The notes below the pieces were generated by a model, which had not been told where the DNA came from, did no database searches, and saw nothing but the letters and a program-made list of their open reading frames with translations. Positions 9,994 through 24,509 of a DNA stretch of 64,000 bases are shown here, one piece after another. The stretch is from Chiloscyllium plagiosum (lineage: Eukaryota), in assembly GCF_004010195.1 (NCBI RefSeq), contig NC_057719.1:4116897-4180896 (forward strand). Direction: 5' to 3'. Made by a program: the position numbers and the translations under genes. How positions within the stretch are numbered: the stretch's first letter is position 1; the number at the start of each line of letters is the position of its first letter.

Positions 9994-10119
9994 CTGATGA
10001 AGGGCATTTGCCCGAAACATCGATTTTGCTGCTCGTCGGATGCTGCCTGAATTGCAGTGCTCCTCCAGCACCATTGATCCAGAATCTGGTTTCCAGCATC
10101 TGCAGTCATTGTTTTTACT
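9994..10119 (+). mobile_element. PLE 3'-end short insertion (family B) starting at a hammerhead core
   Basis: CTGATGA-A-GGGC attt GCCC-GAAA-CATC, then ...tccagcatctgcagtc; helix III CG mutated to CA. Confidence 0.75.
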
Positions 10120-17485: not shown

Positions 17486-18154
17486 TACTTGTAGAATCTC
17501 TTTCTACTATCTTTCATCTTATCTGCCGATGTCATATCCTCTCTCTTTTCCTGATTTCTTTCTTAAGAATGGTCTGTACTCTCTATATTGATGTTAGAGA
17601 TTTATTTGAATCAAATTGCTGATATCTGAATTAAGATTTTTTTTTAAACTGTTGACTAGAACATCAGTATCTTTGGTGATCCATTATTCCTTAATCTTAT
17701 CAGCCTTACCCTTCACTCGAACAGAAACATAATGCCTCTGAATTCTTGTTATTGCATTCTTGACAGCCTCCCACTTGTCAGATGTCCTTTTTACTGCAAA
17801 CAGTCCAATCAACTTCTGAAAGATCATGTCTCATGCCTATTAAAATTTGCCTTGCTCCAATTAATAACTTTAACTTTTATGGAAGGCTTATCCTTTTCCA
17901 TACCATTTTGAAGCTAATAGAATTATGATTGCTAGACCCAAAGTGTTCCCTACTTTTACTTCAGTTACCTGCCCTACCTTATTGCCCAAAAGGAGGTCAA
18001 GTTTTGCGCCTTCTGTATTAGGATCATCCACATACTGATAAGTTTGAACATATTTGACAAATACTTCACCATCCAAACCTTTTAACACTACTGTAGCCCC
18101 AGTCAATGTTTGGAAAATTAATATCCCCATCATTACCAACTTATTATGCTTGCT

Positions 18155-18577
18155 GTTGTGGTTCTGTTCGCCGAGCTGGGAACTTGTCTTGCAAACGTTT
18201 CGTCCCCTGTCTAGGTGACATCCTCAGTGCTTGGGAGCCTCCTGTGAAGCTCTTCTGTGATGTTTCCTCCGGCATTTATAGTGGCCTGTCTCTGCCGCTT
18301 CCGGTTGTCAGTTCCAGCTGTCCGCTGTAGTGGCCGGTATATTGGGTCCAGGTCGATGTGTTTGTTAGAATCTGTGGATGAGTGCCATGCCTCTAGGAAT
18401 TCCCTGGCTGTTCTCTGTTTGGCTTGCCCTATAATGGTAGTGTTGTCCCAGTCGAATTCATGTTGCTTGTCATCTGCGTGTGTGGCTACTAAGGATAGCT
18501 GGTCGTGTCGTTTCGTGGCTAGTTGGTGTTCATGGATACGGATCGTTAGCTGTCTTCCTGTTTGTCCTATATAGTGT
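18155..18577 (-). mobile_element. 5'-truncated Penelope-like element (family A): GIY-YIG C-terminus plus hammerhead-containing 3' end
   Basis: Reverse complement encodes HYIGQTGRQLTIRIHEHQLATKRHDQLSLVATHADDKQHEFDWDNTTIIGQAKQRTAREFLEAWHS; 14-bp TSD ttattatgcttgct at 18141-18154 and 18578-18591. Confidence 0.9.
18191..18230 (-). ncRNA. Minimal type I hammerhead ribozyme motif
   Basis: Reverse complement GCA-CUGAGGA-U-GUCACCU agac AGGGGAC-GAAA-CG-UU-UGC. Confidence 0.75.
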
Positions 18578-18965: not shown

Positions 18966-19184
<219 letters not shown>

Positions 19185-19552
19185 TAAGAATATCACGCTA
19201 AGTCACTTGGTATTTCTTTCTGAAATTGTGTAGAGACATTATGCTTGTGTGTCTTAAAGAGCCCTTTGGAGCCACCCAGTGGCTGTATAATGGTATGCTC
19301 AATTGGATTTTTAAAAACTTAAACACCCCTTCTTTCGTCCTGAAGTTGCAGATACATTCGAAGAGACAGGCAGGTCTGTTATGCTAACAGTAGTCACTAG
19401 TGTGTGAGCCCATACCGCTAGTCTCTGCACACGAATTAATTGGACTTCCTCCACCTTTTTCCCCACATTCCTGACAATTTTTTGTTTATCTGGTTCTGCA
19501 CAAACTCTGCTATTGTCTCCGTTAGCACTTAGACAGTATATTCTAAATCCTA

Positions 19553-19664
19553 GCAGAAAGTGAGGACTGTAGATGCTGGGGATCAGAGCTTAAAAATGTG
19601 TTGCTGGAAAAGCGCAGCAAGTCAGGCAGCATCAAAGGAGAAGGAGAATCGACATTTCGGGCAT
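19553..19664 (-). mobile_element. PLE 3'-end short insertion (family B)
   Basis: gaaagtgaggactgtagatgctgg...gaatcgacatttcgggcat; probable TSD aatccta at 19546-19552 and 19665-19671. Confidence 0.8.
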
Positions 19665-20573
19665 AATCCTAACCAGTTTATGCGTTGGCAAAGCTCATTT
19701 GAGTTCTGAGGTGTACCTGGCACCAAGAATTGCTGTAGGCATCTGTGATTTGCTAAACTTAAGTGCCTGACTTCAGTGGCAGTGGTTGAAATGATTGGGA
19801 GAGAATCCTCCTTGGCTGAGTCTGAAGAGAATGCTACAATACAGAAAAGGAGAGCACTCAGCCCATCAAGTCTGTGCCAATCTTTTGCAAGATTGTCAAA
19901 TAATCTCATTCTACTGTGCTTTCATTTTCATCTTGGAACCTTTGCAGTTATTTATTCAGTTTTCTTTTGAAAGTTACATTTGAATCTGCTTCCATCACAC
20001 ACTCGGACAGTGTGTTCCGGGTCTCTAAATGGTACAGAACGTTCAACTTATTTAGTGACTTTGTTTTGGAACCCTTTTTCTGATGTGAGCTTTAGAAAGG
20101 GGCTCCTCCTGTGGCACAGTGGGATGTAACCAACACAGTACAGAAATGCCTTAGATCGAGAAGTGCTGGAGTAACCAATCTAATTGTAGTTGGGGCTACC
20201 ATTAGTCAGTGCGAAAAGTTTGAATGGGGAGGGAAATATTCCAGGCTACCTACTGTATTGCTGTCAAGCACCTTCTGCTTGTCTGTCCATGTGAACGTTT
20301 CATAAGCACTACACTTTCTACAGTAGTAGATATTGAATTGCTAAAGTTACAAAGCTAGCTTTTCCTGGTGTCTCCCTTTTGAGGCATAAGCAAGATCAGT
20401 AACTCTGATTACAAGGATTTGTTTGCAATGAACTCCATCAAAGTACTACTGTTCTGTTGAGGGGAGGGGGAAATGATTAGCCGAAGCTACTGGAATTGTT
20501 TTGAGTCTCCAAATAGTTCATTAGAATGGGAGATGTTGAGGTTTGGAGCAGTCCATTTACCCATCTCGATATG

Positions 20574-20889
20574 CAGGTCAGGATTTCTTTAGCTGAAAAC
20601 TTCAGAACCAGCTACATTTCAGATAAAGGATATTTGTGGCTTCTTGATAGAAGTTCATTCGGGCCTTTTGGAATAAGAGCTTCACTTGGCCCAAATGAAT
20701 ATGTAGACACAGCTGAGTCCGGGCCTCTGGGTCCAAATACTTTTAGGTCCACTTGGGCCAAACTAAGTATTTTTCCAAAGGGCCTGAACTTAGCATGTCT
20801 ATAAGTCTGTCTGGGTGGTCTTCAAAAAGCCCTTCAGTTTTTTAGATCTTTTTGGTTTTCAGGCATTCAGGTAAAGGATACCTGATATG
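20574..20889. mobile_element. Degenerate MITE-like element
   Basis: Imperfect TIRs caggtcaggatttctttagctgaa / ttcaggtaaaggatacctgatatg. Confidence 0.45.
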
Positions 20890-21716
20890 TACCTGCATTA
20901 GAGGCAGTATAGTCAAAGTTCACTAGACTGGTACCTGGGGTGTGTAGTGAATAAATTGAGTGAAGAATGAGTTGCTCGATAAAACATAGAAGCTTCTGAA
21001 GAAACTTGATAGGATAGACACAGACAGGTTGTTAGAGCTGGCTGGGAAATCTAGAACGCTTGGGTCAGGTGGGGTAGTGCCATGAGGGGCTTAATCTGCA
21101 TAAAGAGTCAATCATTTTGATGAGAAATGTGTTCACTCAAAAGGTTATATATCTTCAGAATTTTTTAATCCAAAGGTGGGTTGCTCCTCCATTTTTAACT
21201 GCATTTAAGGCAAGAATATACAGAATTTGATCTCTTTGGGAATGAAGAGATATGGTGACTGAGAAAGTTGAAGCCCATGATTAGTCATGATTGTATTGAA
21301 GGATGGCATATGCTCAACAGGCTGAATGGTCTACAAATCTGTCGCTTGTGGCAAGTGACAGAATTTTTAAATAGAGGATATCTTGGCCTTTTTTTCATTC
21401 TAAGATGGGCTTAAATGTCGCAACCACCACAAGACAATGTTTCTTCATTTATTCTAGGATTGCCTGCCCAATTTTGATGCTATTATTTGTTGCATTGTGC
21501 AAAGTATGATATATACAGTATCTGCACATATTCAGTGAGTGTCTCAACTAGCACAATTGTTTCTTGTTAACTTTGGATTTTTTGAGGTTTTTTTAATTCA
21601 CTCATGGGATGTAAGCATTGCTGGCTGAGCCAGCATTTAATGTCCACCCTTTGTTGCCCTTGGACATCACTGAATAGCTTGCTGTGGTTCTGTTTGCCGA
21701 GCTGGAAGTTTTTGTT

Positions 21717-21756
21717 GCAAACGTTTCGTTCCCTGGCTAGGCGACATCATCAGTGC
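21717..21756 (-). ncRNA. Minimal hammerhead ribozyme motif (left arm)
   Basis: Reverse complement GCA-CUGAUGA-U-GUCGCCU agcc AGGGAAC-GAAA-CG-UU-UGC. Confidence 0.7.
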
Positions 21757-22004
21757 TTGGGAGCCTCCTGCGAAGCGCTTCTTTGATGTTTCCTCCGGTG
21801 TTTATAGTGGTCTGTCCCTGCCGCTTCCGGTTGTCAGTTTCAGCTGTCTGCTGTAGTGGTTGGTATATTGGGTCCAGTTAAGGCTGGGCACAATATACCA
21901 ACCACTACAGAGGACAGCTGAAACTGACAACCGGAAGCGGCAGGGACAGACCACTATAAACACCGGAGGAAACATCAAAGAAGCGCTTCGCAGGAGGCTC
22001 CCAA

Positions 22005-22044
22005 GCACTGATGATGTCGCCTAGCCAGGGGACGAAACGTTTGC
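22005..22044 (+). ncRNA. Minimal hammerhead ribozyme motif, sense to DICER1 (right arm)
   Basis: GCA-CUGAUGA(22008-22014)-U-GUCGCCU agcc AGGGGAC-GAAA(22034-22037)-CG-UU-UGC. Confidence 0.78.
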
Positions 22045-22623
22045 AACAAAAACTTCCAGCTCGACGAACAGAACCACAGCAACGAGCACCCGAGCTACAA
22101 ATCTTCGCACAAACTTTGAACTGAATAGCTTGTTAGGTCATTCCAGAGGCAGTTAAGGTTCACCACTTTTCTGTTGGTCTGACGTTAGTCCAGTCAAGGT
22201 AAGGATGGCAGTTTCTTTCCTTAACATACATTAATGGATTAGTGAGAGAGAATGGACTTACTTGAGATAGTCAACATGGATTTGTACAGGGGAGATCTTG
22301 TGTCTCAAATTTAATTGAGATATTGAGGAAGTGAAGCAGATGATTGAGGATAGGACAGTGGATGTTTCCTCTGTGGACTTCAGTAAAGTATTTCACAAGA
22401 ACATCAACTGTGGATTCATGGCCATCCTGAGACTTTTAATTCCAGATTATTTTGATATTGAATTCAAATTCCACCATCTGCTGTGGTGGGATCTGAACCC
22501 AGCTCCCCAAAGCAAACCATTACTTAGGTTTCTGGACTAACAATCCAGTGCTTGTGATATGTTAATCCAGAAGATTAAGTCACATGTGACTTGCAGTGAG
22601 TTGGTAGGTTGGATACAAAATTG

Positions 22624-22776
22624 AAAAATGTGTTGCTGGAAAAGCGCAGCAGGTCAGGCAGCATCCAAGGATTAGGAGAATTGACGTTTCGGGCTTATGC
22701 AGCCTGACCTGCTGTGCTTTTCCAGCAACACATTTTTCAGCTCTGATCTCCAGCATCTGCAGTCCTCACTTTCTCC
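22624..22776. mobile_element. Fold-back PLE short insertion (family B)
   Basis: ~43-bp inverted arms; 14-bp TSD tggatacaaaattg at 22610-22623 and 22777-22790. Confidence 0.85.
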
Positions 22777-23335
22777 TGGATACAAAATTGGCTTGGTCAT
22801 AGACAGAAGATTGTTGTGGAGGGGTGTTTTCTGACTAGAAGTCTGTGACCAATGGTGTTCCACAAGGATCAATGTGATACCTCTGTTTTGTAATGTTTAT
22901 AAATGATTGGATGAAAATATTGGTGGTCTGATTGGTAATTTTGCAGTCAACATGAAAATTGGTGGAGCTGTGGATAATGAGGAAGGTTGTCAAAGTGTAC
23001 AAGAGGACATAGATCAGTTGGAAAGTTAGGCAGAGAGATGGCAGAATGGAGCTTAATCTGGTCAAATGTGAGGTATTGCATTTAGGAGTAAACAATAAAT
23101 GACCAGACCCTTGGGGCAACACAGTGTTGTGAGAGTGGCAACACTAAGTGATAAAGAAGACATATGGCGTGCTTACCTTAATCAGTGGGGATCTTGATTT
23201 TAAAAATGGCGACTCTTGTTGCAGCTGTATAAGACTTTATTTAGGTAACATTTGGAGTATGTGTGTAGTTCTGGCTATAGGAACAATGTGGAGGCTTTAG
23301 AGAGTGTGCAAAAGAGGTTTATCAGGATTGGAGTG

Positions 23336-23666
23336 TGATGTGGAGGTGTTGGTGTTAGTACTGGGGTGGGCAAGGTCAGAAGTCACACTACATCAGATTT
23401 TAGTCCAACTGGTTTATTTGACATCTTAAAACTTTCAGCACTGCTTCTTTGTCAGGTGAAGTGAAGCAAAGCACACAGGCTTCTAATTTATCGGCGGAGA
23501 GATCAAAAGATCAAACAAATGCTGAGAGTGGAGTGTCGACAGGCTGAATAGTAAGTCTCTGTAGGTGATCAAAAGTGTCAGATGGTGTGAGTAAAGTGTT
23601 AACAGCTGAACAGCTAGTGAAGGAATGGTCAATAATCTGATTGAGGCAGAAGGACAATTACAAAAA
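23336..23666 (-). mobile_element. PLE 3'-end insertion (family D, older)
   Basis: Homologous to the 6507 and 62660 copies (tagtccaac..gtttatttg); 11/12 TSD aggatt(g/a)gagtg at 23324-23335 and 23667-23678. Confidence 0.7.
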
Positions 23667-24335
23667 AGGATTAGAGTGCATAAAGAGGGGTTGGGCAAAC
23701 TTGCATTGTTTTCACTTGAATGGTGGAGGCTGAGGGATAGAAGTATATAAAATGGAGAGATATGGGTAAGGTGGATAGTTTTTTTTCTCCTCGAGTGGAA
23801 ATGTCAAATACTACAGGCATAGCTTTTAAGGTGGGGGGAGTTTAAAGGAGATCTGAAGGTTTTTTTACACAGACGGTAGTAAGTGTTTGGAAGACTTTGC
23901 AAGGGAGGAAGCAGAAGGGTAGAAGCAGATAAGATAGCAACATTTAAGAAGCATTTGGACAGACACCTGAACAGTCAGGGAATAGAGGCAGGTGGGCCAT
24001 GTACAGGAGGATGGGATTAGTTTAGAATGGCATCATAGTCAGTGCAGCCATGATGGCCAAAGGGTCTGGTCTTGTGCTCTACTGTGCTATGTTCTAGATG
24101 AGTTTTTACTAGAATTAACAATGTGGTCATCATTAGACTTTTAACTCCAGAACATTTATTGAATTCAAATTCTACCTTGTGGAATTTCAATACTGGTCCC
24201 CAGAACATGACTAGCAATCCAGAGATGCTGGTAAAGAGGCAATACCACTTGGCCACTTATAAATATAACAACAAATTTTAATATATTCAACTATTTTGTA
24301 GCTTGCAGATTAGCAACCTGAATTTCTAAATGTAA

Positions 24336-24509
<174 letters not shown>

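Follow-up and report, generated by a model that had tools for sequence, protein, structure and literature searches.

The Dicer gene of Chiloscyllium plagiosum carries, deep in one of its introns, a near-perfect hairpin derived from a Penelope-like element (PLE), with a hammerhead motif in each arm. Its position raises the question of whether this RNA acts on its host gene. A preliminary description of the sequence proposed that it alternates between a ribozyme and a long double-stranded RNA (dsRNA), and that the latter might supply small RNAs against the PLE family or feed back on the DICER1 transcript; it might equally be one scar of insertion among many. We examined the hairpin in the window, the whole 64,000-nucleotide stretch of DNA analysed, and compared it with other copies of the element in the genome and with the orthologous site in a related species (organism B). 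A literature search on links among DICER1, sharks, Penelope and hammerheads, with most subscription papers and supplements outside its scope, returned nothing on this locus.

Anatomy of the insertion

DICER1 lies on the + strand, as shown by Pfam matches to the Dicer_platform (E 8e-34), PAZ (E 6e-13) and Ribonuclease_3 (E 2e-10) domains; these came from three of the five stretches submitted, the PLE fragment and one long DICER1 exon being without a match. The boundaries of the host intron were taken from GT/AG sites and continuity of the reading frame in the DNA, and put 2.5 kb between the donor and the insertion and 2.3 kb between the insertion and the acceptor, inside the DICER1 pre-mRNA as originally described. 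The features of the intron and the insertion are as follows.

19184 to 24397, + strand: DICER1 intron that received the insertion, 5.2 kb, separating the PAZ-coding exon from the coding exon after it
21669 to 21681, + strand: 5' copy of the target-site duplication (TSD), 13 nt, its last 3 nt common to the left arm end; single copy at the empty site of organism B
21679 to 21877, - strand: left arm, an inverted, 5'-truncated PLE 3' end (end of the GIY-YIG open reading frame (ORF), pseudo-LTR (pLTR) and hammerhead), without tail
21717 to 21756, - strand: hammerhead motif with weakened helix II, absent as a ribozyme from the DICER1 transcript
21878 to 21883, no strand: inter-arm junction, 6 nt
21884 to 22082, + strand: right arm, a sense, 5'-truncated PLE 3' end, whose ORF terminates ...RRLPSTDDVA* at 22024
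22005 to 22044, + strand: minimal type I hammerhead, from core motif and family comparison, with a predicted cleavage site
22083 to 22119, + strand: PLE 'tail', 37 nt, one-sided, belonging to the beginning of the element ORF and reaching the outer reverse transcription start (terms of PMC11167929 and PMC8557442)
22120 to 22132, + strand: 3' copy of the TSD, from the direct repeat and the empty-site comparison

The arms form an inverted repeat of 199 nt at 96% identity, and their 192-bp core (21679-21870 and 21891-22082) contains exactly five differences, in agreement with the earlier count by eye of about five. In the RNA three of these become G-U wobbles and two are true mismatches (C21697-A22064 and G21850-A21911), giving helix segments of 18, 152 and 20 bp, of which the 152-bp stretch is unbroken. 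Further mismatches lie at the junction end, at 21888 and 21890. Each arm reaches position 997 of a natural copy of the element (L032), and this common truncation point leaves an almost loop-less palindrome, a stub of about 450 nt without coding capacity whose left arm is antisense in the DICER1 pre-mRNA. The perfect 13-nt direct repeat of the preliminary description is present; since the last 3 nt of its 5' copy overlap the left arm, however, the true duplication is 10-13 nt with microhomology. The description of arms, TSD and Penelope-derived hairpin thus stands, with the addition of the 37-nt tail, which it had omitted.

A Penelope/Poseidon element family

The right arm has at least 41 matches at 93-99% across the 3.56-Gb genome (best 40 of 582 candidates scored), and a first look with the C-terminal ORF fragment of the family gave 100,241 candidates, a figure that is not a copy number. 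The insertion arms continue an ORF with reverse transcriptase (RT) and GIY-YIG domains that can be followed in longer copies. Two of these matched RVT_1, L037 above the cut-off (E 8.5e-12) and L039 just below it (E 8.3e-7). Pfam gave the GIY-YIG endonuclease fragment no score in either the insertion or the family copies; the motif VVYKIPC..C..HYIGQT was read directly in family copies, and translations of the longer ones place GIY-YIG after the RT, with CCHH present and the CX2-5CxxC Zn-finger linker absent. By the definitions in PMC8557442, CCHH without this linker sets Penelope/Poseidon apart from Neptune and Nematis, and the combination of RT, C-terminal GIY-YIG and CCHH without linker assigns the family to the Penelope/Poseidon clade on its sequence motifs rather than by a tree. 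The Penelope origin noted earlier is borne out by RT, GIY-YIG with CCHH, pLTR hammerhead, tail and TSD, all present in the family or the insertion.

The pLTR hammerhead overlaps the ORF start: the natural copy L063, whose ORF is interrupted by stops and frameshifts, can be followed from the ATG of the hammerhead, across the tail, to the N-terminal domain and the DKG motif. This arrangement indicates that 22014 corresponds to the element start codon; counted from there, the left arm stops at about +69 and the tail at about +106. The family closely resembles the described Penelope/Poseidon insertion units (PMC8557442; PAc of Anolis, PMC11167929), which likewise have an inverted 5'-truncated copy beside a sense copy, a one-sided tail of 30-40 bp, a hammerhead overlapping the ORF start with its cut site 26-28 nt downstream, and an RT with C-terminal GIY-YIG lacking the Zn-finger linker. 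The parallel extends to details of the anole Poseidon (PMC11167929), in which the ORF starts at hammerhead stem II, the cut site lies 26 nt downstream and the tail falls between two reverse transcription starts. Unlike those units, the DICER1 copy is a non-coding 450-nt stub whose arms are truncated at the same position. Among the listed arms we also observed at least three subfamilies at diagnostic columns, the DICER1 insertion falling in the one that includes its closest copies.

Fold-backs are a common footprint of the family

An inverted truncated copy with a one-sided tail of 30-40 bp is described as typical of endonuclease-bearing PLEs (PMC8557442). To set the DICER1 insertion beside its relatives we took the 29 other top genomic copies, chosen by similarity to the right arm, with flanks of 1.5 kb. 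Fifteen of the 29 have a head-to-head arm within 1.5 kb, the same inverted pseudo-LTR layout that had been recognised in the DICER1 insertion, and 14 have no inverted arm within the flank; in L018 (the same copy as L031) an inverted arm is present beyond it. The arm is complete in 13 copies; in 12 of these its end falls on one shared base (element position 1194/1195), and 12 have a TSD candidate of 9-13 nt, the flank of the thirteenth consisting of N.

How often such structures occur was estimated from 80 arbitrary 10-kb stretches (766,945 non-N bases, 767 kb). These contain 14 arm matches of at least 60 nt. Six of the stretches also hold inverted repeats, seven in all, whose arms measure 100 nt or more and agree at 90% or more. 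Four of the seven, in three stretches, are family members, corresponding to three same-family fold-back insertions, a rate of 3.9 per Mb that rests on three events (95% interval 0.8-11) and extrapolates to about 14,000 fold-backs in the genome (95% interval 2,900-41,000). The probability of at least one same-family fold-back in 64 kb is 0.22 (0.05-0.52), and that of any long inverted repeat 0.39; the window contains a single long fold-back of this kind. The DICER1 fold-back is among the more perfect: of the seven sampled inverted repeats, two have arms that reach 150 nt with an identity of 94% or higher. With a chance of about 0.2 per 64 kb, the presence of a fold-back in DICER1 does not call for a particular cause. 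The suggested link to DICER1 as such finds no support, given the frequency of fold-backs in the family (15 of 29 top copies, about 4 per Mb) and the absence of the insertion from the related species.

Several further features of the fold-backs were observed. By eye, the TSDs of L001-L030 often start with A or AC, which matches the element sequence just past the tail, and often finish in T, TG or TTG, where they overlap the end of the inner arm, so that their ends present 1-3 nt of primer-template microhomology on both sides. In L013, L022, L023 and L010 a third, internal piece of the ORF lies between the arms, which suggests template jumps during cDNA synthesis. A second, smaller fold-back lies about 500 nt downstream in the window (22624-22776), with a tail and a 14-nt TSD (22610-22623 and 22777-22790), and belongs to a different, apparently more abundant hammerhead-bearing repeat family. 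The organism B contig enters this fold-back, which is therefore older than the species split. A sense hammerhead-like core of that other family, with an altered helix III palindrome, is found at 9994-10018 (+ strand).

A lineage-specific insertion

In two runs of organism B, 21668 is followed immediately by 22120 within one contig that has a single TSD copy, identifying one lineage-specific insertion and supporting the earlier reading of a single young event. In same-species runs, X1 spans the right junction, and the flank contigs of X5 end before both junctions. The flanks differ between organism B and the window at 46 of 1134 nt (about 4%), and private changes within the arms amount to 5 of 384 nt (1.3%): 21695, 21730 and 21849 in the left arm, two of the three at CpG, and 21911 and 22064 in the right. 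None is compensatory. The empty site, together with an arm divergence below that of the flanks, indicates that the insertion probably post-dates the species split, and it has likely been drifting since, with the proviso that gene conversion between the arms could blur this dating. Conservation at the orthologous site, as would mark a domesticated RNA, is not found, organism B lacking the insertion.

We considered whether the arms were copied from different templates, given that A21911 occurs in 13 and A22064 in 16 of the 29 top copies. This idea was rejected, as these copies had been picked by right-arm similarity, and it is also contradicted by the other 83 listed arms, of which none carries both letters. 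Across 20 arm pairs (L116, L043, L057 and L031 being drawn from other searches), the two arms of a pair agree in their subfamily letters more closely than arms paired by shuffling (0.105 versus 0.177; 0 of 2000 shuffles), and the paired arms of the listed copies belong to the same subfamily.

Hammerhead motifs and predicted RNA folding

The sense hammerhead has a 3-bp helix I (22005-22007 with 22042-22044), core nucleotides at 22008-22014 followed by an extra U at 22015 after A9, helix II at 22016-22033, GAAA at 22034-22037 and a loop-less, palindromic helix III; its full core spans 22008-22041. The GUU ends at 22041, 3' of which cleavage is predicted, confirming on the + strand the motif reported as sense to DICER1, and the minimal type I form with palindromic helix III is likewise seen in this copy. 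Its core letters are the family's commonest at nearly all positions, and an intact core is expected from the youth of the insertion (P 0.63). Of the claim that each arm holds a complete hammerhead, the half concerning the sense core holds; on the minus strand the change at 21730, where the other copies have G at the equivalent position in 29 of 29, breaks the helix II pair 10.3-11.3 and leaves helix II alone at -2.3 versus -6.9 kcal/mol. An Rfam scan of the whole window gave no match at the gathering score; the identification as hammerheads is therefore based on the core motif and on published work on PLEs. Luense et al. 2017 is reportedly the hammerhead dimer paper.

The sense copy agrees with the metazoan PLE minimal hammerheads of PMC4209133 in its type I form, long helix II, extra base after A9, G10.1-C11.1 and palindromic 15.2-16.2 without loop III, and pairs on opposite strands 100-700 bp apart were already noted there. 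Unlike them, it has a 3-bp helix I with a distal stem, and in this transcript its own antisense arm is predicted to mask it. In PMC4209133 cleavage of single minimal hammerheads was below detection and that of dimers was low; the anole Poseidon hammerhead cleaved only with the element protein, and RNA-seq showed no ends at its site (PMC11167929). Within the window a single same-sense minimal hammerhead is intact; DICER1 itself extends beyond this scanned stretch.

Folding of the hairpin predicts one long duplex with a minimum free energy (MFE) of -412.9 kcal/mol, whereas shuffled sequences average -142.8 (z -42; 0 of 100 shuffles comparable). Although the hammerhead fold lies within 2.4 kcal/mol of the MFE when 21990-22060 is folded alone, forcing it in context costs 78 kcal/mol relative to the duplex, and each of the eight core positions examined pairs with the left arm at a probability of 0.997 or above (unpaired probability below 0.003). 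At all nine transcript lengths the right arm is almost fully paired, with 154 of 155 nt paired when the core has just emerged; the antisense left arm lies upstream and is transcribed first, so that the right arm would zip onto it during transcription. The two mutually exclusive folds proposed earlier are thereby reduced, in these predictions, to the duplex, and the active hammerhead fold appears inaccessible in the DICER1 transcript.

An older antisense copy of the same PLE family (18147-18570, minus strand, 88%), with a GIY-YIG remnant and a hammerhead, sits in the intron before the PAZ exon, and with the sense arm it flanks that exon in a geometry that can favour back-splicing or skipping. 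The predicted pairing of the sense arm is -393 kcal/mol with the local left arm versus -348 with this copy, and the local arm is far closer.

Discussion

We consider it highly probable that the DICER1 fold-back is a lineage-specific, doubly 5'-truncated Penelope/Poseidon insertion, likely neutral, whose RNA is predicted to form one long duplex that hides the hammerhead. It is a new instance of a published kind of PLE insertion; its likely neutrality follows from the base rate of fold-backs, its position in the intron and its absence in one related species. The anatomy of the insertion and the in vitro behaviour of the anole Poseidon protein suggest how it may have arisen. The endonuclease would nick the two strands 10-13 nt apart, and each nick would supply a 3' end as primer. 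On the top strand, reverse transcription would begin at the inner site (about +69) and yield the left arm, which lacks the tail; on the bottom strand it would begin at the outer site (about +106) and yield the right arm, which has it. Each cDNA would end after about 200-240 nt, and the two would be joined head to head. In the anole system two reverse transcription starts bound the tail, extension occurs on both strands, and ribozyme cleavage was not seen without protein (PMC11167929). In the DICER1 pre-mRNA the antisense arm would be made first and the emerging sense arm would zip onto it, such that the hammerhead is predicted never to fold; the duplex would then be removed by splicing and degraded with the intron. 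Intronic inverted repeats of the inverted-Alu type are edited by ADAR. Like them, the hairpin would place a long intramolecular dsRNA of mobile-element origin within a host intron, and A-to-I editing of the duplex is plausible, indeed probable by this analogy; unlike them, its arms abut and come from one insertion event, and here editing is only predicted.

Other readings assign the RNA a function. The hairpin might be one of thousands of PLE fold-backs jointly feeding a pool of endogenous siRNA, or of ADAR-tolerised dsRNA, against the family, the DICER1 site being incidental. The unbroken 152-bp helix and the estimated 14,000 similar fold-backs would suit such a pool, to which the DICER1 locus would contribute a negligible share. 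Deep-intronic RNA, however, is nuclear and short-lived. Penelope siRNAs in transgenic D. melanogaster fall exactly on the inverted regions (PMC3681739), so the duplex need not be inert, whereas in mouse fibroblasts and ES cells long dsRNA is turned into siRNA with low efficiency (PMC6391682), an observation in mouse that may not hold in this fish; on balance we regard this reading as unlikely. Far more doubtful is a co-opted autoregulation, in which Microprocessor or Dicer would cut the hairpin in DICER1's own pre-mRNA and so tune DICER1 output. The hairpin does lie in the sense transcript, and a plant precedent has been proposed in the intronic precursors ath-miR838 and ppt-miR1047 of DCL1 (PMC3565333, which gives both spellings miR828 and miR838). 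Those hairpins and the amniote RECK and C10orf118 hammerheads (PMC10761166) resemble the present case as structured RNAs in introns of host genes, but the former are short miRNA precursors, whereas the DICER1 copy is a young repeat absent in a close relative, and the latter have confirmed cleavage and are described as ultraconserved, whereas any processing of the DICER1 copy would be hypothetical. Against autoregulation stand also the absence of the insertion in a species only about 4% diverged, its chance occurrence of about 0.2 per 64 kb, the lack of compensatory change between the arms and the 2.3-2.5 kb to both splice sites. A pri-miRNA stem has roughly 35 bp, from which the 192-bp stem is far removed.

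We give just as little credence to a nascent form of this idea, in which the fresh fold-back makes the DICER1 pre-mRNA a Microprocessor or Dicer substrate, cleavage of the 152-bp duplex yielding siRNAs against the youngest retroelement subfamily of the genome and reducing DICER1 output; if true, vertebrates would have a parallel to DCL1 autoregulation that is only just arising, as one species has the insertion and its relative lacks it. Hardly any weight, finally, falls to a ribozyme switch, in which the intron RNA would sometimes fold as an active hammerhead and cut the pre-mRNA 3' of 22041. Its consensus-like core and the near-optimal fold of the isolated segment would permit this, but the core is expected to be intact from youth, is predicted to be paired in context at a difference of 78 kcal/mol, and needs a same-sense partner, for which the inverted copy is unsuitable and of which the window holds no other intact example. 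Published monomers were inactive (PMC4209133), and the anole ribozyme needs the element protein, RNA-seq having shown no ends at its site (PMC11167929).

As it stands, the lineage-specific insertion is of little consequence: by estimate, this genome has ten thousand or more scars of the kind, and the locus would be special only if processing with an effect on DICER1 were shown. It does provide a clean example of the two-primer footprint predicted by the in vitro work on the anole Poseidon, with a tail-less and a tailed arm and an empty site for comparison. As a class, PLE fold-backs may be a large potential source of near-perfect intronic dsRNA.
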